Source: Candidatus Thorarchaeota archaeon
GTDB taxonomy: Archaea > Asgardarchaeota > Thorarchaeia > Thorarchaeales > Thorarchaeaceae
Direction: 5' to 3'
Assembly (NCBI GenBank): GCA_016840855.1
Contig: JAEORO010000024.1
Coordinates: 1-43,142, forward strand
DNA: 43,142 bases
The position numbers and the translations under genes were made by a program. The notes below the pieces were generated by a model. That model searched no databases, was not told the origin of the DNA, and saw only the letters and a list, made by a program, of their open reading frames with translations. Shown in pieces: positions 31,825 through 42,039 of this stretch (the stretch's first letter is position 1; every line of letters begins with the position of its first letter).

Positions 31825-31848
31825 TGCTTGCTTTCACTCGACTTGGGG

Positions 31849-32979
31849 ATGAATGGCGTGAGTGAGTACCCAGAAAGAAGAGACCCGCGAAAGGTTATTG
31901 CTGGTATAGCAATCATAGTGATTCTAGTTATCTCAGTCTATGCTGTTGTCACATGGTGGAAACCGAGGTTTGTTGTCTATACCTATAGTAGCTTTCTTGA
32001 CTGGGGGGATGAAGGTGCAGAAGTTGTCTTAGAGCGTGCATTTGCACCCTTTGAAGAAAGATACGGAGTCGATGTGGAAATCATCCTCTTGGAAGTGGAT
32101 GCAAATGGCATCATATCGAAACTGGTAGCTGAATCTGCAAATCCTGTTGCTGATGTAGTAATTGGAATCGATAACATTCTAATATTACAAGAGGCTGCGA
32201 GGAGTGTCCTAGAACCATATACCTCTCCAAGCCTTAGCCTTATCAATGAAACTTTTGTGAATTTGTTAGATTCTGAACATTATCTAACACCGTTTGATTT
32301 TGGATTGGTCACGCTGATATATTCCACAAATACAATTAACACAACAACTCATCCACAACTAGGAAATCTTACATTCGCAGATCTTGCTGAAACAGAATTG
32401 GCTGCTGCTCTAGTTACTGAGAATCCAAATTATAGTAGCCCCGGACTCTCATTCTTACTATCTCAGATTGCAGTTTATGAAAAGATTCTTCATCAAGATT
32501 GGACAACGTGGTGGGAAGATGTCAAGGACTACATAGATGTTCAAGAAGGCTGGACTGAGGCATGGTCTGTATGGTCTAGTGATCCTAACAAACACCTTCT
32601 TGTCAGTTATGGGACTGATCCAGCATATTCAGCAAGCTATCTGGAGACTGCTCCAGACACGGCAGTTGCACCGTTCTTTTATAACGACCAATATTGGGCA
32701 TGGATGCAAGTAGAAGGGGTAGGCTTAGTAAAGAATGGTCCAAATCCAGAACTTGGGAAGGCATTCATAGATTATTGTCTTAATGCAACTGTACAAACAG
32801 AGATTCCACTTAACCAGTGGATGTTTCCTGTTAGAACAGATCTCACATTACCAAATGTCTACCAATATGCAATACATCCGGATCAAGTTAGTGTCCTAAA
32901 TCAACTTCTAAATAGCACAGAGATTTCATCTAATTTATCAAATTGGTTAAGCTTGTGGACTGCAACTAGAGCACCCTAG
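31849..32979 (+). CDS. thiB: Thiamine ABC transporter substrate-binding protein (start uncertain, 31828-31858)
   Basis: VYTYSSF, ADVVIGIDN, PFDFG, SSPGLSFL, VSYGTDPAY, QVEG and IPLNQWMFPV; N-terminal TM anchor. Confidence 0.9.
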   Translation: MNGVSEYPERRDPRKVIAGIAIIVILVISVYAVVTWWKPRFVVYTYSSFLDWGDEGAEVVLERAFAPFEERYGVDVEIILLEVDANGIISKLVAESANPVADVVIGIDNILILQEAARSVLEPYTSPSLSLINETFVNLLDSEHYLTPFDFGLVTLIYSTNTINTTTHPQLGNLTFADLAETELAAALVTENPNYSSPGLSFLLSQIAVYEKILHQDWTTWWEDVKDYIDVQEGWTEAWSVWSSDPNKHLLVSYGTDPAYSASYLETAPDTAVAPFFYNDQYWAWMQVEGVGLVKNGPNPELGKAFIDYCLNATVQTEIPLNQWMFPVRTDLTLPNVYQYAIHPDQVSVLNQLLNSTEISSNLSNWLSLWTATRAP

Positions 32980-32993
32980 AAGAGGGGTAAAGA

Positions 32994-34631
32994 TTGGAAA
33001 CAAGAGTTCTTCTCAGATATGCAATACTAGCGTTCCCATTACTGCTACTCCTCGTGTTCTTGATATTTCCTGTCAGCATAGTTATAGTACAAGGACTCTT
33101 CGCAGGAACTCCTTTTCAAGATGTACTGTCATCACCAGTAATTCAGTTCACCATTCAATTCACCGTGAGTCAATCAGTTGTTAGCACAATTATGGCAGTT
33201 CTAATTGGCTTACCCGGAGCATTCTTAATTGCTCGTTTGAGATTTAGAGGAAAGTCCTTAGTAAAAGCGATGATGATAGTTCCTTTTGTACTCCCACCGA
33301 TTGTTGTAGTCGTAGGATTTCTTCAGATGTTTGGGTCTTATGGAGTGATTGATTCTATTCTGATGTGGATTCGAGGATCATCGGTGTCGGTCTTCAATTT
33401 GGCTACAGGAGTTCCTGGAATCATACTAGCTCATACATTTTATAATGTACCATTAGTTCTTCTGATGGTTTCATCTTCTCTAGAAAGACTCAACCCTGAG
33501 ATAGAAGAGAGCGCAGAGATATTAGGAGCAAGCTCACTTCAAAGATTTCGACGAATCACTCTTCCACACATAATGCCTGCAGTCCTGGCTTCCGCGGTTT
33601 TGACTTTCATGTTCTGCTTCATGTCGTTCCCCATTATACTCGCGTTTGGCCAAGGAACCTATATGACGATTGAAGCTCAGATATGGAATGCATTCAGAAT
33701 GTTTGATTATGGAGAAGCAAGTTCTCTTACACTTATCCAGATTTTCATTACTATAAGTCTGGCATATATCTATGTCAAATTTGGAAGGAAAGATAGCGAT
33801 GTTGGTCCGACTGCATCAATAAAGACAACACCATTCAATCGATATCGAATACATGAAAGAGCCTTAATTGTAGGATATCTAGTCATAATTGCTGTCTTAG
33901 TCTTAGGACCAATTGTTACAATATTGCGAGCGTCTATTTTCGATCCGATTGGTCAAACATACACATTGGAAGGATTTGTGAATCTCTTCACTTTGGGAAG
34001 CCAAGGAGGATTCAGATATTTCGTAAACTCACTCTTCTATGCAGGCTTAGCCACAGTTTTTGCCATTATTCTAGGTATTCCATTAGCTTTAGCATTACGG
34101 AGTAGTGGAAAAGCTGTTCCTACAATTGCATCAACGATGATACTTCTCCCTCTTGGTATATCGTCAATCACAGTTGCTTATGGTCTTGTACTCGTCATTG
34201 CAGTTCCAACTGGTCTTGTTACTAATCCTTGGCCAATTATTGTAGTAGCCCAGACTATTATTGGACTGCCTTTTAGTGCAAGAGCTATTGAAATTTCTAT
34301 GAGCAAAATTGATCAGACACTCTTAGAACAAGCAGACTCACTAGGTGCAACGAGACTACAACGCTTGTTGTTTTTGGAGCTGCCACTTCTAGCTCCAGGT
34401 ATCCTTGTAGGAGGTGTTTTCGCTTTTGCCATGGCAATAGGAGAGATGTCTGCTACACTCTTTATTGCCCTACCACAGAACTACACACTCGCAGTGGCAA
34501 TCTATGATTATCTCGCAGTAAGAGCATTTGTTGATGCTGGTGCGGCAGCTCTTGTTCTTGTGATCATTTGCGTTGTTGCGTTTCTTGCAATGGAACGAAT
34601 CTCAGAAGGCAGCACTGGAGGTGCTCTATAA
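32994..34631 (+). CDS. thiP: Thiamine ABC transporter permease (two-domain)
   Basis: PFVLPP, LAHTFYNVP; two EAA-type motifs (EESAEILGA and EQADSLGA). Confidence 0.88.
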   Translation: METRVLLRYAILAFPLLLLLVFLIFPVSIVIVQGLFAGTPFQDVLSSPVIQFTIQFTVSQSVVSTIMAVLIGLPGAFLIARLRFRGKSLVKAMMIVPFVLPPIVVVVGFLQMFGSYGVIDSILMWIRGSSVSVFNLATGVPGIILAHTFYNVPLVLLMVSSSLERLNPEIEESAEILGASSLQRFRRITLPHIMPAVLASAVLTFMFCFMSFPIILAFGQGTYMTIEAQIWNAFRMFDYGEASSLTLIQIFITISLAYIYVKFGRKDSDVGPTASIKTTPFNRYRIHERALIVGYLVIIAVLVLGPIVTILRASIFDPIGQTYTLEGFVNLFTLGSQGGFRYFVNSLFYAGLATVFAIILGIPLALALRSSGKAVPTIASTMILLPLGISSITVAYGLVLVIAVPTGLVTNPWPIIVVAQTIIGLPFSARAIEISMSKIDQTLLEQADSLGATRLQRLLFLELPLLAPGILVGGVFAFAMAIGEMSATLFIALPQNYTLAVAIYDYLAVRAFVDAGAAALVLVIICVVAFLAMERISEGSTGGAL

Positions 34632-35692
34632 TGGTAAAGGTTGAGCTCAAAGGATTGGTAAGAGAATTTGATGATGACTCTAAAATTGGACCAATAGACC
34701 TTCAAGTTAAAGATGGGGAGTTAATGACTCTCCTTGGTCCAAGTGGTTCTGGGAAAACAACAACACTTAGGATGGTCGCAGGTTTCATAGAGAATGTTGG
34801 AGGAGGCTTGCTCTTTGATGAGAAAGACATGGTAAATGTTCCACCTAATCAACGCAATATTGGAATGGTATTCCAATCGGTTGCATTATTCCCTAACATG
34901 ACCGTGTTTGAGAACATCTCATTTGGTCCAGACATGGCGGGATGGTCTAGAGAAAAGACCATTGAAAGGGTCGAAGAGCTAGCAGACCTTCTAGGTATTC
35001 GGAGATTGTTACTAAGGAAGATATCTGAGGTCAGTGGTGGTGAAGCTCAACGAGTTGCCCTTGCTAGAGCACTCGCGACGAGCCCTAAACTTCTACTACT
35101 AGATGAGCCATTATCAGCACTAGACCAGCAGCTCAGAGAACGTCTACAATCAGAGATTAAGCAGATACAGCGAAAACTGAAGGTCACAACTATTTATGTC
35201 ACCCATAGTCAAGATGAAGCATTTGCCATTTCAGATAGGGTAGCAATCCTCAAAGATGGCATTGTTGTCCAAGTAGGAACTCCTGAGGAACTCTATGATT
35301 CGCCAGCAAATGAGTTCGTAGCAAGATTCCTTGGAAGTGGAAATATTTTCTCTGGCGAAATAACTGACATTTCTGATGGAATTCTCACTATATTAGTCAA
35401 CGATTCGAGTTTCAAAATCCCTGGTAAGGGAAAGATCAGTTCTTATGTATCTTTCAGCGTGAAGCCTGAAGATGTAATCATATCCGATTCTGCGCCATCA
35501 AACTGGACACAAGCAAACTTAGTTTCAATAACACCTCAAGTAGGTTCATTCAAAGTATCTATCGACCTCGATGGAGTTCCCATAATCGCACTTACGTATG
35601 ACGAGGATTTGGTCAAGCGTCTAAGAGCCAATGGAAACAAGACTGTTGCTTTTTCATTCAAACCAGATTCAATTATCATCATCGGGAACTGA
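34631..35692 (+). CDS. thiQ: ABC transporter ATP-binding subunit with C-terminal TOBE region
   Basis: GPSGSGKT, VSGGEAQRVALARA, LLLDEP and VTH; TAATG coupling with the permease. Confidence 0.9.
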   Translation: MVKVELKGLVREFDDDSKIGPIDLQVKDGELMTLLGPSGSGKTTTLRMVAGFIENVGGGLLFDEKDMVNVPPNQRNIGMVFQSVALFPNMTVFENISFGPDMAGWSREKTIERVEELADLLGIRRLLLRKISEVSGGEAQRVALARALATSPKLLLLDEPLSALDQQLRERLQSEIKQIQRKLKVTTIYVTHSQDEAFAISDRVAILKDGIVVQVGTPEELYDSPANEFVARFLGSGNIFSGEITDISDGILTILVNDSSFKIPGKGKISSYVSFSVKPEDVIISDSAPSNWTQANLVSITPQVGSFKVSIDLDGVPIIALTYDEDLVKRLRANGNKTVAFSFKPDSIIIIGN

Positions 35693-36787
35693 ATCAGTGA
35701 AATCACCAGGAGGTGGAGGAACATGATCTCTTCCCGATTCAGGAGGTGGAGGAATATACTCTCGGATAGGTTCAGGAGGTGTATCAGGCTCAACCTCAAC
35801 CTCAACCTCATCTTTTTGCTCAGTTTCAGTTGGAGCTTGAGAATCTGAAGAAAGTGAGGGGCTGGAAGTCGTCGGAAGTAATTCACGGTCCACGAGATTG
35901 AGTATCTGACTGCGAATGTAGTTTGAAGAGTTTATCATGTCTGGAACATCGTATACGGTTGTCAAATAATGCATCATAGAGAGAATAGCTCTCTCCTTGA
36001 AGACCATGAAGACGAGAGTGAAATTAAGAACTATTGAAAACAATGGTCCAAGTGGTATAATCATTATAAAGATGGGAAGCCATGGAGCATCTCCACTAAC
36101 ATTCAGAGTGAGCTCAAGCCACACAAGAATGATGTCTACTCCTGCAAAGAACTCAAGAATATCCTCAACATCATCTCCAACATTGCTAAGAGACCTATCC
36201 CTTAAGTCAAGATGGAACAATCCAGAGTCCTTCATTAACCATGGGCCAAAGTAAAGTAAGATTATTGTAAATGGAAGGATGACGACACTGGCAATCATTA
36301 AGACAACGCCAACAAAGATAATGTCACCTGTGTTCAATTGACCCATCAACTCGAGCCCTAGTAGTGTGAGCGCAATTCCTACGATAAGGACAGAACCATA
36401 GAGTGACCTTCGAAACACTGTCCCCAAGTTCTCGTCTTCTGGTTCTGGAGACAGAAAATAATCACCAGCATGTCGCTTAGCAAATCTATGTATCCGAAGT
36501 GGTAGACTAACTGCTCGAGGCCATTTGGCGATAATAGCACACAATACTATTGCGAGTATTATTGAACCTACAGATGCCGCAAGCATGTACATAGTATATG
36601 GAACGAAACGTGAAGAATCAAAGCTATATACACCAAAAAAGTTCAGCAGAGAGAGTAGTCCCCATGTGGATCCGAGCATTATTAGTGTTGATGCCATAAA
36701 TCCAAGGATAATCTTACTCCAACTGAGACTCTCAACCTCATCGAATTGCTTCTTGAATGGACTTGTGTATTTGTTTGTTTTTTCCAT
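35669..36787 (-). CDS. Multi-pass membrane protein with Pro-rich/acidic C-terminal tail
   Basis: About 6 TM; tail EVEVEVEPDTPPEPIREYIPPPPESGRDHVPPPPGDFTDSVPDDDN. Start trimmed to MEKT. Confidence 0.85.
   Translation of the reverse strand: MEKTNKYTSPFKKQFDEVESLSWSKIILGFMASTLIMLGSTWGLLSLLNFFGVYSFDSSRFVPYTMYMLAASVGSIILAIVLCAIIAKWPRAVSLPLRIHRFAKRHAGDYFLSPEPEDENLGTVFRRSLYGSVLIVGIALTLLGLELMGQLNTGDIIFVGVVLMIASVVILPFTIILLYFGPWLMKDSGLFHLDLRDRSLSNVGDDVEDILEFFAGVDIILVWLELTLNVSGDAPWLPIFIMIIPLGPLFSIVLNFTLVFMVFKERAILSMMHYLTTVYDVPDMINSSNYIRSQILNLVDRELLPTTSSPSLSSDSQAPTETEQKDEVEVEVEPDTPPEPIREYIPPPPESGRDHVPPPPGDFTDSVPDDDN
35707..35810. repeat. 33-bp-period coding repeat (3 copies) plus (CTCAAC)n
   Basis: CAGGAGGTG at 35707, 35740 and 35773; CTCAAC x3 near 35789-35806. 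Confidence 0.75.
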
Positions 36788-36974
36788 AATCAGCAACCAA
36801 AACTTGTAGGTGCACCTGATACATAAGCCTTCTTCACGCCTACTAGAGGGAGATTTAGTCGCTATATCTAACACAATAACAATCATATACCACAAAAAGG
36901 CAATATCGAATACGCTGGCTAGATACCATTTATGCTCAGCATTAGATGTTTAATGAATAGCGTCGTGATTAACC

Positions 36975-37901
36975 ATGGTAGTTGGCTATGAGGTGCTGGA
37001 AGATGGGACCCTGAATGAGGTCGAATTGTCTAAAGATGATCTTGACTCCTCAAAAGTTGTCTGCGTTGTCGACGATGAAACCAAGAGCATCTATCTGTGG
37101 AAGGGGACTCAAGCAGGTATTAGGAGGAAATTCATAGGCGCCAGGGTTGCTACCAACCTGAGAACGGAATATGGCTTTCACTTCAAAGTGCGACCATTAG
37201 ACGAAGGGGAAGAGCCACCTACTTTCTTCACGGCCTTAAATGGAACTACAGCGGCTGAAAGAGTGTTAAAGCCGGGGGAGCCAGCTCCGCCTCCAAAACC
37301 ACCAATGCCAAAGACTCAAACAACTGAAGAACCCATATCATCAACTTCCGCACCACCAAAACCTAAACCAGCAGAGCCAATGACACAACCAACGACAACA
37401 GCACCACCGCCCAGACCACCTACATCGACAACAAAATCAACATCACCTCCACCAAGACCACCTACTAGCACACCAACTGCACAAGCTCCAGCTGGGGACA
37501 TTCAAGCAATGATTAATGAGCTTGAAACAGTAGACCCACCCGAAGGATATCAACGGGAGCTGCTGATTATATACAATGAGCTCTTCACAGTGGCAGAGCA
37601 CAAGATTACTGTCTTTGGACAAGAGAAAGTAGAGAGGAAGTTTGAGAAAGTAAAGGATCCACCCGAAGGTACCTTCATGGCGGAAGGGTTCATTCCCCGC
37701 GTAATTGTTAAAGACGGAAGAGTATTAGGTATTGAATTACTGAAAGGAACACCAGACGCTATCCTAAGTCCTATTAAAGCAGAGATGAAAGAGCGTCTTG
37801 GAGACCTTATTAGCTTCTTCAGATCAGAACTGGAAGAAGAATCAGATGTAGATCAAAAGAAAAAGAGTAAAGCAAAAGGCAAGAAGCTAGTTGCAAAATA
37901 A
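36975..37901 (+). CDS. Gelsolin-domain protein with Pro-rich linker and C-terminal domain (1DGelX-like architecture)
   Basis: EVELSKDDLDSSKVVCVVD...IYLWKG...K...ARVA...LDEGEEPPTFFTALNG matches the gelsolin repeat consensus; P/T-rich linker; basic tail. Confidence 0.85.
   Translation: MVVGYEVLEDGTLNEVELSKDDLDSSKVVCVVDDETKSIYLWKGTQAGIRRKFIGARVATNLRTEYGFHFKVRPLDEGEEPPTFFTALNGTTAAERVLKPGEPAPPPKPPMPKTQTTEEPISSTSAPPKPKPAEPMTQPTTTAPPPRPPTSTTKSTSPPPRPPTSTPTAQAPAGDIQAMINELETVDPPEGYQRELLIIYNELFTVAEHKITVFGQEKVERKFEKVKDPPEGTFMAEGFIPRVIVKDGRVLGIELLKGTPDAILSPIKAEMKERLGDLISFFRSELEEESDVDQKKKSKAKGKKLVAK
37404..37472 (+). repeat. Duplicated PPPRPPTST motif, 42-bp period
   Basis: CCACCGCCCAGACCACCTAC at 37404 and CCTCCACCAAGACCACCTAC at 37446. 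Confidence 0.75.
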
Positions 37902-37935: not shown

Positions 37936-38325
37936 ATGTCATCTCATCTCGATCCTGCAAAGGAAAAGGAACTTGTTGAGCTATTAATGGGTCTGACTAA
38001 TTACGCGGACCTTGATGCAATAGCTGTGGTGAGCAAACAGGGAGTCAAACTCGCGTACTTTGCTACTGAGGACTCTGAGGCAGATCCTGATCTAATGGCT
38101 GCTGTTAGTGCAGCACTCTTAATGACAGGAGACATGGCTGCAAGTAAACTTGAGCTCAGTGATCTCTATGAAGTCGTTGTTCGTGGAAAGGACGGCTTTG
38201 TAGTTCTATCTCATGCAGGTGAATTCTTGCTCATGGGTTCAGCCAAGGACTTAACATCCATGGGTCTTGCAGTGACTCAGATGAGGAAATACGCTAAAGA
38301 AGTTGGAGAGCTTCTGGGTCAATAA
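37936..38325 (+). CDS. Roadblock/LC7 (MglB/LAMTOR-like) domain protein
   Basis: AIAVVSKQG...DLMAAVSAALL...L.EVVVRGKDGFVVL...MGLA; GAGGT SD before ATG 37936. Confidence 0.9.
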   Translation: MSSHLDPAKEKELVELLMGLTNYADLDAIAVVSKQGVKLAYFATEDSEADPDLMAAVSAALLMTGDMAASKLELSDLYEVVVRGKDGFVVLSHAGEFLLMGSAKDLTSMGLAVTQMRKYAKEVGELLGQ

Positions 38326-38400: not shown

Positions 38401-38817
38401 TTGGTTGTCGCGAACTTGAAGGGCATTATTGTGTTTGATGAAGCAGGGATTCGGCAAGCTTCAGTTGGTCTTGAAAATATTAGGGTCAACCAAGAGCTGT
38501 TTGGCTCGTTTATGTCAGCGATACAAACCTATGCCCAAAGATCCATGGGTAGCGAAATGAAGGGACTCACCTATAGCAATGTTCGACTGATGATGGGACG
38601 AGCAGGCGAAAACTATGTTGTGACACTCCATTCAGTAGATGACCCAGATGCAGAATGGAACCATCGAGCGACATTGCGAGTTGTTGAAGGCGATGGCTTC
38701 AAGCTGAATAATCAATATTTGGAAATCCTAAAAGAACTCCTTACAGAAGAGGAGTTGTCCATTGATGAAGCAGCAACATTGACATTAATGAAACGAAATA
38801 ATGTATATGATTCATGA
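38401..38817 (+). CDS. Longin/roadblock-like (profilin-like fold) small protein
   Basis: GIIVFDEAG...ELFGSFMSAIQTYA...GSEMKGLTY pattern typical of Asgard longin-like domains. Confidence 0.65.
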   Translation: MVVANLKGIIVFDEAGIRQASVGLENIRVNQELFGSFMSAIQTYAQRSMGSEMKGLTYSNVRLMMGRAGENYVVTLHSVDDPDAEWNHRATLRVVEGDGFKLNNQYLEILKELLTEEELSIDEAATLTLMKRNNVYDS

Positions 38818-40371: not shown

Positions 40372-42039
40372 GTGGTTAGAAATCTGTCTCTAAATTTCTT
40401 GTTTAAGAAAGAAGGCACGAAGGTCAAACCTGAGTCCGAAAGCGTTTGTCTGGCTACTGCACTAGCCTCTGCAGAGTCTCAGAAAGGAAAAAGTACTAGG
40501 ATAGTTGGGTTGAGTAGATTATCACTCCCATTCTGGATTGTGCAGACCTCGCCAACAAAATCAATTGTTCTCTCTGCAGCAAGTAGTATGAGAAAGGATT
40601 TTCATTTCACTGACATGAAAGGAGCAAGTGAAGTAAAGAGAATAGTTAGCTCAGAGCTGTCTCAAGCAACAGATATTCCGAAGGTTGCCTTAAAGATACA
40701 ACCACTCCTTGAGAATATTGACAGCCATACTGCAGATATTGCTAACATAATCGAACCTGCATTAATCAATATGATTGGAAATTATGTTATTGCTTCCGAT
40801 CCTGTAGCTGAGCCTAACAGAGTTAATGTTCTTATTGACTCAGCTGTTGCACTAAAAAGGACAGAAGAGTTTAGGAAAATTTCCGAGTCTTCAAAGCTCC
40901 GAATAGAATCAGCTGAAACTCTGCAGAAGTTAATCCGGGAGAATTTTAGTGCTCAAACTACAATTCTAGAAAATGTCACAAATGTGGAATTGGAGCGTGG
41001 ACGTGAACGAATTAGAATGATGGAAGAGAGAACAAAACAAGAAATCGCCAAACTCACAAAGGATAAAGATGACAAGCTGTATGATTTGCGTGAAAAACAC
41101 AAAATGAACTTACGAGCCATGACTGCAGACTTCTCTCGATCTGTCAATGACCTTGAACAATTCTTCATTAATATTATCGAGGTCATAAGAAATGCTAGAT
41201 CGCAAATAAGCCAGAAAGAAGCCGATACTGAAGGTGCGATTGCTGTATATAGCAATCTCGTTGGCGCTCTAAAAAGTACAATGTCAAAAAGTCAACAGCC
41301 TTTAGATACAATGGAGGCTAAAAAAGCCAATTTGCAGAAGCATGTGACTGAAGCTCAATCGAAATATGAATCAGACAAACTAAAAGCTGAGGCTACACTA
41401 CAGACTGAAATTCAAGAGCGTCAGAAAAGAATCGATGAAGCTAGAAATGAAATGGAACTTAAAGCCAAAGAGCTCGATGAACTTATAGCTCAGGTGAATA
41501 CTGCAATAAATAAGACAGAACAAGCAGTAGAAGAGAGAGTTTTAGCGTTTCAACAAGAATTTCTTGGTCTAATGAATTGGACACTTGATAATAATTCGAT
41601 TATAGACCTCGCCCCGTTGACACTTATCGATATACACACATATGTAGCAAAATACGATGATCGATCTCAGAGAATTCTTACACCCATGTTCCTGCCTGAA
41701 GGGAACTTTCTGAGCATGGGAAAGGGCAATACTTTGAGTAATGATTTTGATGCCGCCATAAATGCCTTAATCGATGATTGGTTGAAAAATGACCAATCCT
41801 TCAGAGATTCCTTCGAGAGCGCATGTACGAAAGGCAATATGCTGCTAGCTCCTGAAGGTGAGCAACTCTTAGTCGAAGGGCTTGAGGAACTTCTAAGAAT
41901 AAAGCTTTTACAGCGAGATGACATAGAAAGAGTTCTTACCATTTGGAGCAGATACTCAGGGAAATGCCCAAAATGTGGCACAGTGGTAGAAGCAGGATCT
42001 CAGTTCTGTCAAAAATGTGGACTGGAATTGGTTAAGTAA
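40372..42039 (+). CDS. Long coiled-coil protein with C-terminal double zinc ribbon
   Basis: E/K/Q/A-rich heptad region at roughly aa 160-400; terminal CPKCG...FCQKCG. Confidence 0.85.
   Translation: MVRNLSLNFLFKKEGTKVKPESESVCLATALASAESQKGKSTRIVGLSRLSLPFWIVQTSPTKSIVLSAASSMRKDFHFTDMKGASEVKRIVSSELSQATDIPKVALKIQPLLENIDSHTADIANIIEPALINMIGNYVIASDPVAEPNRVNVLIDSAVALKRTEEFRKISESSKLRIESAETLQKLIRENFSAQTTILENVTNVELERGRERIRMMEERTKQEIAKLTKDKDDKLYDLREKHKMNLRAMTADFSRSVNDLEQFFINIIEVIRNARSQISQKEADTEGAIAVYSNLVGALKSTMSKSQQPLDTMEAKKANLQKHVTEAQSKYESDKLKAEATLQTEIQERQKRIDEARNEMELKAKELDELIAQVNTAINKTEQAVEERVLAFQQEFLGLMNWTLDNNSIIDLAPLTLIDIHTYVAKYDDRSQRILTPMFLPEGNFLSMGKGNTLSNDFDAAINALIDDWLKNDQSFRDSFESACTKGNMLLAPEGEQLLVEGLEELLRIKLLQRDDIERVLTIWSRYSGKCPKCGTVVEAGSQFCQKCGLELVK

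Follow-up and report, generated by a model that had tools for sequence, protein, structure and literature searches.

A Thorarchaeota orthologue of the one-domain gelsolin-X protein: conserved modules, a lineage-specific linker and tail, and possible roles of domain X

The window analyzed here is contig JAEORO010000024.1 of a Candidatus Thorarchaeota archaeon (GenBank assembly GCA_016840855.1; 43,142 nucleotides (nt) in full), and the gene under study, at positions 36975..37901 of its forward strand, encodes a protein of 308 amino acids (aa) that consists of a gelsolin domain, a proline-rich linker, the domain known as X, an amphipathic helix, an acidic patch and a basic tail. An earlier note, made from the DNA sequence alone, had taken this protein to be an actin regulator of the one-domain gelsolin-X (1DGelX, or GelX) type, and this assignment is strongly supported by the alignment with the characterized protein, Thor_1DGelX of Thorarchaeota SMTZ1-83 (KXH72031.1), to which the product is identical in 227/310 positions (73%) over the full length (BLASTP, E=2e-136). 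It appears virtually certain from this comparison that the gene is the Thorarchaeota orthologue of 1DGelX. Because the full-length identity is accompanied by the same type of linker and the same KKLVAK end, the architecture that had been flagged is that of an already characterized protein. Thus, we are dealing with a further GelX copy in a known family, and what is added here is a confirmed accession link, shuffle and codon tests of the linker, the tip of a hairpin in domain X and the invariant KLVAK end. With respect to the accession, our literature search found no match to KXH72031.1 in main texts; the accession was found in a supplementary table, where it is entered as the Thor_1DGelX of the 2020 PNAS paper (PMC13716822, supplementary table). 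The gelsolin domain of KXH72031.1 is 35% identical to ProGel (31/88, a hand count), which equals the figure printed for 1DGelX in the 2020 paper (PMC7444086).

The own genome, which is 92% complete, contains four clear open reading frames (ORFs) with a gelsolin domain and a weak fifth one, and domain X is found only in the ORF at 36975..37901, so that, as far as sequence goes, this is the sole GelX of the genome and the relationship is one of orthology rather than paralogy. The weak fifth match (E=5.4e-5) lies in a fairly proline-rich 288-aa frame (G000:C58:28936-29799, minus strand) in which no domain X was detected. ProGel proteins consist of a gelsolin domain alone, in about 90-115 aa; the present ORF is 308 aa long, and separate ProGel-like ORFs lie on contigs C240 and C211 of the same genome. 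Proteins of the 2DGel type contain two gelsolin domains; here the second domain matches neither the gelsolin hidden Markov model nor the gelsolin fold. Neither Pfam nor NCBIfam holds a family for the 308-aa protein. For all conservation values given below, we used the best 120 of 310 matches, which include the query, were picked for their likeness to it, are 64-100% identical to it in the best local alignment and, where named, come nearly all from Thorarchaeota; these are referred to as close homologues. The comparison beyond the family rests on 55 Asgard loci, 40 of them hand-picked among the 150 matches listed and 15 from ten weaker-scoring genomes; one locus that lacks a gelsolin domain was left out of the linker and tail counts (n=54).

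The gelsolin/cofilin-like domain (aa 1-89, 36975..37241) was claimed from the letters alone, with the provision that the claim would fall if the domain did not model as gelsolin, and it withstood that test. Residues 1-88 match Thor ProGel (PDB 7C2F) with E=6e-14, and weaker matches extend to the 2DGels of Asgard archaea and to gelsolins of eukaryotes. In an AlphaFold2 model of the full-length protein, built on a 68-sequence alignment, this block has a predicted local distance difference test score (pLDDT) of 86-98 and superposes on 7C2F with Z 16.4 and a root mean square deviation (rmsd) of 1.2 Å over 88 residues at 36% identity (VIA-align; Foldseek E=1.4e-8); gelsolin-fold structural matches are confined to aa 1-96 of the model. 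The DWG motif (D33/W42/G44) aligns with that of ProGel, with G44 invariant and W42 present in 90% or more of the 68 sequences. The position of R51 is held in 2DGels by a glutamate that we take to be the type II Ca2+ ligand, and the arginine is accordingly consistent, at the level of sequence, with calcium independence. Over aa 1-90, column identity averages 0.92.

Domain X (aa 173-258, 37491..37748) is predicted to be a folded module rather than a coiled coil, with a helix (173-184) followed by five strands (192-199, 202-213, 216-225, 239-246 and 249-258) and block pLDDT of 87-96. A coiled coil was considered for X and set aside, both models built here giving the helix and five strands and then a further helix; the 2020 study had modelled X as a low-confidence coiled coil (PMC7444086), and the helix that follows X in our models could be what that earlier model picked up. 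The Lokiactin study describes X and the C-terminus as disordered, likens the fold to that of Thor GelX and calls the function unclear (PMC13716822); the folded nature of X may already show in the X models of Supplementary Figure 1 of that study. Mean column identity over aa 191-258 is 0.93. The second and third strands form a long, 12-residue hairpin, the tip of which, V213-F214-G215 (37611..37619), is kept across Asgard as hydrophobic-[L/F]-G-[K/E], with L, F or M at position 214 in 43/53 rows and G at 215 in 40/53 (9 rows are gapped). The full-length model as a whole has a predicted template modelling score (pTM) of 0.42 with both domains confident, as might be seen if a flexible tether joined the two. 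The compact C-terminal domain that had been proposed from the sequence alone thus survives in part: a folded X is predicted, and the claim had merged with it a separate amphipathic helix (aa 259-285), since conservation and predicted structure split the two elements.

Domain X (query aa 176-258) is found in 219/251 Asgard genomes, including 87/89 of those that are at least 90% complete, and, outside the family, gelsolin and X lie within one ORF in 54/55 Asgard loci. A profile search with X among 1.84 billion representatives retrieved 241 proteins; among the 150 listed of these, the sequence before X is long enough for a further domain in 104, of which 95 carry a gelsolin domain there, as do 4 of the 46 that are short upstream of X. 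Judging from these sequence searches, X is likely confined to Asgard, and only likely, because the searched set carries no taxonomy. No known family or solved fold could be assigned to X in the searches made, the structural ones of which used models of X together with the tail or of the whole protein. Among 53 members searched against Pfam there was no family (the best match was NAF, in 2/53); a profile search of PDB sequences with X gave one match, at E=0.67; Foldseek with the model of aa 172-308 as the query found nothing at E<=0.001 in PDB or BFVD; in VIA-align with the same model, matches to the long helix (Z about 5.5) took up the lists, and the rows that cover X reached Z 3.5 at best, with an rmsd of 3.7-3.9 Å; and fold searches with the full-length model gave only gelsolin/cofilin folds and isolated helices. 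Look-alikes in the ESM Atlas score 0.76-0.80, are all archaeal and serve as leads only.

The arrangement of X varies among the homologues. Two GelX variants (P0178 and P0251) have two X domains and basic tails that end in LPKIP or LKKIP, ends that resemble the LKKT actin-binding motif; in P0226, X is placed before the gelsolin domain; P0174, P0205, P0216 and P0229 carry X without a gelsolin domain, some with cysteine-rich, zinc-ribbon-like ends; and in P0257, gelsolin and X are followed by a long coiled-coil-like region. Among the last six proteins there may be some fragments. In the distant Asgard loci L043-L048, L051 and L053-L055, the long hairpin of X is shortened or deleted, and several of these homologues also have an acidic tail that ends in F-x-I-[DE]-I.

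The element that follows X, which was absent from the features listed in the earlier note, is a near-invariant amphipathic helix (aa 259-285, 37749..37829; predicted, with a hydrophobic moment up to 0.52). Mean column identity is 0.95 for aa 259-284, and for aa 266-284 the moment is 0.43-0.47 and the net charge +1, giving a HeliQuest discriminant of 0.74-0.77, which under the HeliQuest formula and lipid-binding grading indicates only 'possible' lipid binding. Across the Asgard rows compared, 33/45 tails of 18 aa or more have an amphipathic segment after X with a moment of at least 0.45 (55/56 rows could be parsed, and the search pattern trimmed two tails too far). Next come the variable acidic patch ELEEESDVD (aa 285-293, 37827..37853), with mean column identity of 0.48 over aa 285-295, and the basic tail KKKSKAKGKKLVAK (aa 295-308, 37857..37898), both present as described from the letters alone. 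The terminal KLVAK is near-invariant in the family: mean column identity is 0.99 for aa 304-308, [KR]KLVAK is the C-terminal end in 116/120 close homologues, and the last 15 aa carry a net charge of +5 to +9 in 120/120. Such tails are uncommon in the genome itself, where, among 2088 ORFs of 200 aa or more, only 6, GelX included, have a net charge of +8 in the last 15 aa. Outside the family, a tail of net +5 or more occurs in 6/54 homologues, several tails are acidic and 9/54 are under 10 aa, so the basic tail is a trait of the family and not of GelX. The invariant LVAK end, as a sequence pattern, suggests a sequence-specific binding site rather than an electrostatic one, and lipid anchoring appears insufficient for the tail because it explains the charge and leaves the invariant last four residues unexplained. 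Two other interpretations of the end were considered. A reading of the helix plus KKLVAK as a WH2/LKKT motif was not adopted, given the distance of about 20 aa between helix and motif and the misfit to the consensus, and a shared C-terminal sorting signal was dismissed, since GelX is alone among the ORFs of at least 80 aa in its genome in ending in [KR][LIV][VI][AP][KR].

The linker (aa 90-172, 37242..37490) is rich in Pro, Thr, Ser and Ala and is predicted to be disordered, with no secondary structure and block pLDDT of 41-62. All the motifs that had been seen in it by eye are present: PAPPPKPP (aa 103-110, 37281..37304), which is the best-kept proline cluster, with P105-P107, P109 and P110 at 96-100%; PPKPKP (aa 127-132, 37353..37370); and two copies of PPPRPPTST (aa 144-152, 37404..37430, and aa 158-166, 37446..37472). 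Mean column identity is only 0.41 for aa 113-175, and family linkers are 71-94 aa long with a Pro fraction of 0.24-0.35. The query linker contains four PP[RK]P motifs, against a mean of 0.27 in shuffles (0/5000 shuffles reach 4), and PP[RK]P occurs in 118/120 close homologues in 0-5 copies, with a median of 3. Among the 2088 long ORFs of the genome, GelX alone has three or more PP[RK]P, and only 3, GelX included, have 27 or more Pro per 83 aa; the two others that equal its linker in this respect are G000:C31:3144-4115 (plus strand, 30 Pro/83 aa) and C183:133-1371 (minus strand, 27 Pro/83 aa). In Asgard outside the family, linkers are 36-183 aa long with a Pro fraction of 0.03-0.35, which reaches 0.2 in 18/54, and PP[RK]P is present in 7/54. 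Thus, the proline linker is real, and the PP[RK]P units appear, from these sequences, to be mostly restricted to the Thorarchaeota lineage. PP[RK]P and the basic tail are both kept within the family, at the frequencies given, and both are rare beyond it.

The two PPPRPPTST copies had been read as a recent duplication that hinted at selection on valency; this reading is not supported, and a recent duplication has to be rejected. The copies are 77% identical over 39 nt, with 4/9 codons the same and 5/9 different synonymously, including Ser TCG vs AGC. The chance codon identity calculated from the Pro codon use of GelX itself is 0.41, and orthologues at 80-84% protein identity have 32-45% of such codons in common (18/20 orthologues extracted), so that synonymous sites between the copies are saturated and the duplication is not recent; furthermore, PPPRPP is present twice in L090 and three times in L095, both of them orthologues from the same genus. 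Two exact PPPRPPT copies are found in 5/120 close homologues and two PPP[RK]PP in 32/120. The duplication, as far as the sequences go, is old or convergent. The motif was kept while silent sites became saturated and, therefore, some selection on PPPRPP is indicated.

What could read such motifs in this organism? The genome encodes one conventional actin, a profilin, with two profilin-like proteins on contig C86, and a tandem-SH3 protein. Next to the profilin gene at L057:1492-1878 (minus strand; PF00235 at the cut-off, with 25 bits) comes a 147-aa ORF (L057:1032-1475, minus strand) that is profilin-like by eye, so this might be a tandem profilin pair. One Thor profilin binds the VASP peptide PPPAPPLPAAQ at 200-500 uM (PMC8410842); the profilins of Loki, Odin and Heimdall LC2 showed no such binding, and polyproline was not bound by other Asgard profilins (PMC8410842; bioRxiv 2021.08.06.455371). 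Pfam SH3_1 exceeds its cut-off in 4/51 Thorarchaeota family genomes via a 129-aa tandem-SH3 protein, which is represented in the own genome by G000:C77:487-867 (minus strand, 72%) and has a homologue at L088:1441-1830 (minus strand). This protein is found in 20/61 family genomes and 6/23 high-quality ones, and its relatives occur on 24 plasmid records of bacteria and Haloferax; its spread is patchy and does not match that of the near-universal linker motifs. Two of its matches contain a TAG inside the aligned stretch, and in L088 and L089 the gene adjoins a flavodoxin-like gene, near a desuccinylase-like gene (both assigned by sequence reading). WW domains were found in 0/51 family genomes and WH1 and GYF domains not at all in the own genome, in searches in which the controls were equally silent. 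Profilin is the one credible, though weak, partner of the linker.

Downstream of GelX, 34 nt after its stop codon, lies a roadblock/LC7 gene (37936..38325, plus strand; PF03259, E=2.7e-10), to which the earlier note did not draw attention. In 20 family loci, chosen for long contigs out of 51 Thorarchaeota family genomes with a match, a roadblock gene is found directly 3' of GelX on the same strand in 20/20; in the other Asgard loci a roadblock match was obtained in 29/55, and 26/55 have it on the strand of GelX no more than 300 nt away, in a survey with a single query and flanks of 1.5-2.5 kb that might miss some. The gene for an ABC transporter ATPase upstream of GelX, which is unrelated to it, is likewise present in 20/20 family loci; in the window it belongs to a cluster at 31828-35692 (plus strand; binding protein, permease and ATPase) that is presumably of the thiamine type. 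A divergently transcribed gene at 35669-36895 (minus strand), which is upstream of GelX in 15/20 family loci, encodes a 408-aa membrane protein without a Pfam or NCBIfam match; the product has an acidic, proline-rich C-terminal tail with PPPP runs. Beyond the roadblock gene, a 138-aa ORF (38401-38817, plus strand; 8/20 family loci) is longin-like by eye, with no family match, and a 555-aa ORF (40372-42039, plus strand; 4/20 family loci within the fetched flanks) carries a zinc ribbon (PF13240) at the C-terminus of its product, the long central part of which resembles a coiled coil. A scan for sigma-70 promoters and terminators was uninformative (7 sites vs 4.2 expected, and 2 vs 2.1, respectively).

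Comparison with the known systems places the protein closest to KXH72031.1 (Akil et al., 2020, PNAS), with which it shares the gelsolin domain, domain X, the amphipathic helix, the KKLVAK end and a proline-rich linker (Pro fraction of 0.33 and three PP[RK]P in KXH72031.1), and from which it differs in the Thr/Ser content of the linker (0.27 vs 0.13), in having PPPRPPTST twice and in its longer acidic patch. The Lokiarchaeum ossiferum B35_GelX (UYP44381.1; Radler et al., 2026, Nature, PMC13716822), compared by its published description, is reported to have one gelsolin domain and X as well; in most of the other Asgard GelX proteins sampled, unlike the present one, PP[RK]P and the basic tail are missing. 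Thor ProGel (7C2F) is the closest solved structure to aa 1-89 and is not calcium-regulated; in contrast to our protein, it consists of a single domain, without linker or X, binds weakly and bundles filaments rather than severing them (PMC7444086). The Asgard 2DGels and the eukaryotic gelsolin, villin and adseverin share the domain fold (Z 9-14) and sever, cap and nucleate; unlike GelX, they have two to six gelsolin domains, calcium regulation and an LKKT-like linker motif, whereas GelX combines one gelsolin domain, an Arg at the Glu position and a second domain that is not gelsolin.

The biochemistry published for the 73% identical protein provides the frame for any functional hypothesis. According to the 2020 study, Thor 1DGelX binds rabbit actin with a dissociation constant (Kd) of 7.7 uM, against 337 uM for ProGel, severs actin, nucleates at low ratio and inhibits polymerization at 1:1, with the same activities in EGTA and in Ca2+ (PMC7444086); the Lokiarchaeal GelX co-precipitates with Lokiactin (PMC13716822). 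In the light of the family assignment, the product of 36975..37901 very probably severs actin independently of calcium. As an explanation of the whole, we consider it rather likely that GelX remodels actin independently of calcium by means of two modules. One of them, the gelsolin domain, would occupy the gelsolin/cofilin site on actin, as shown for ProGel, and the C-terminal module, consisting of X, the helix and, in Thorarchaeota, the KLVAK tail, would provide a second contact, most likely on the filament side or on a second actin subunit; a filament side-binding element in the C-terminal extension was proposed by the authors of the 2020 study (PMC7444086). The second contact would raise the affinity about 40-fold over ProGel and enable a protein that otherwise binds weakly to sever and nucleate. 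The chances that such a contact is the main job of the C-terminal module appear evenly balanced. It is somewhat more likely than not that the linker acts mainly as a spacer, which over about 80 aa would hold the modules apart as a stiff and extended tether, because its length is bounded in the family while its sequence drifts; the PP[RK]P units would be a lineage-specific addition, perhaps a weak docking site.

Several observations weigh against this explanation. All the activity data on 1DGelX come from rabbit actin and none from Thor actin; the single domains could not be expressed, so that the domains were never separated; and green fluorescent protein (GFP)-tagged 1DGelX in U2OS cells stays out of the nucleus, is concentrated at nuclear-envelope and endoplasmic reticulum regions and associates only weakly with filaments (PMC7444086). 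The localization therefore fits membrane binding better than binding to filament sides. As for the linker, PP[RK]P occurs 2.74 times per family linker vs 0.29 in shuffles, an approximately ninefold enrichment that is indicative only, since the sequences are related and not independent and slippage repeats would also beat shuffles; the retention of the motif despite saturated synonymous sites points to more than a pure spacer would need. A scaffold function, with the PP[RK]P repeats serving to bring in profilin-actin or an SH3- or WW-like partner much as Ena/VASP or WASP do, and with selection acting on the number of repeats, would draw on this enrichment, on the near-universal presence of the motif in the family, on the fact that only GelX within the genome has three or more copies, on the presence there of a profilin and a tandem-SH3 protein and on the binding of a proline peptide by a Thor profilin. 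We nevertheless regard this as improbable. Class I ([RK]xxPxxP) and class II (PxxPx[RK]) SH3 motifs are at background in family linkers (0.94 vs 0.88 and 0.96 vs 0.89 in shuffles, respectively), and the one motif of each class in the query linker is reached by 59% of 5000 shuffles. Polyproline of the kind that recruits profilin in Ena/VASP and formin FH1 regions has five or more Pro in a run or LPPPPP-type tracts; runs of five Pro occur in the linkers of 0/120 close homologues, and these linkers hold almost no Leu or aromatic residues. The variable copy number, the age of the duplication, the rarity of PP[RK]P outside the family, the patchy SH3 protein with its plasmid relatives and the failure of other Asgard profilins to bind polyproline argue in the same direction.

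The other two rivals concern the C-terminal module. If the hairpin tip V213-F214 and the helix insert into the cell membrane, with anionic headgroups bound by the basic tail, the protein would sever and nucleate actin at the cortex or in protrusions. This possibility, which is compatible with the two-module remodeller and differs on the main purpose of the C-terminal module, gains from the localization of the GFP fusion, the uniformly basic tails of the close homologues, the hydrophobic tip in most Asgard rows and the amphipathic segments after X. However, the localization comes from overexpression in human cells, basic tails are scarce beyond the family, where some tails are acidic and others nearly missing, the best amphipathic window has a net charge of 0 or less in 24/45, and a simple electrostatic anchor would not seem to need the exact LVAK; membrane tethering as the main purpose is plausible, though somewhat unlikely. 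A still more doubtful proposal is that the dimer of the downstream roadblock protein is a docking platform for the helix, for the KLVAK end or for the two together, which would link actin turnover to roadblock/small-GTPase signalling. Helices dock on the roadblocks of dynein LC7 and Ragulator, the helix of GelX is 95% conserved in the family, and the roadblock gene is the constant neighbour of GelX in the family and a frequent one elsewhere, but synteny alone is a weak argument because the unrelated ABC ATPase is also present in 20/20 loci. Moreover, the presence of the roadblock neighbour does not follow that of the helix: tail-less homologues in L021, L034 and L040 have a roadblock neighbour, helix-bearing homologues in L005, L006, L011 and L016 have none detected, and the word 'roadblock' is absent from the one supplement file of the Lokiactin study that was searched (PMC13716822). 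The linker motifs, the basic tail and the adjacent roadblock gene are not dealt with in the published texts that were consulted. The membrane, roadblock and motif alternatives are not mutually exclusive.

The gene itself is ordinary, because the class of proteins to which it belongs is known and tested, and the main question is the role of domain X, for which the boundaries of X (aa 173-258), the helix (259-285) and the tail (295-308) provide handles, with V213/F214, the face of the helix, LVAK and the PP[RK]P units as candidate functional sites and the roadblock neighbour as a candidate partner. A far-reaching scenario, which we consider unlikely in its entirety, is that X, spread across Asgard and without a recognized solved relative, ties a calcium-independent gelsolin, via its hairpin tip and the helix, to the membrane, to the neighbouring roadblock protein or to the two at once. 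In that case, GelX would represent an ancestral factor that remodels actin at the cortex of Asgard protrusions under the influence of GTPases; eukaryotes would have replaced this link, and the PP[RK]P units and KLVAK of Thorarchaeota would be added docking sites. Asgard cells are not known to have Arp2/3, formins or ERM proteins. Should anchoring to the membrane or to the roadblock/GTPase system prove true, it would explain how Asgard archaea couple actin turnover to membrane shape.

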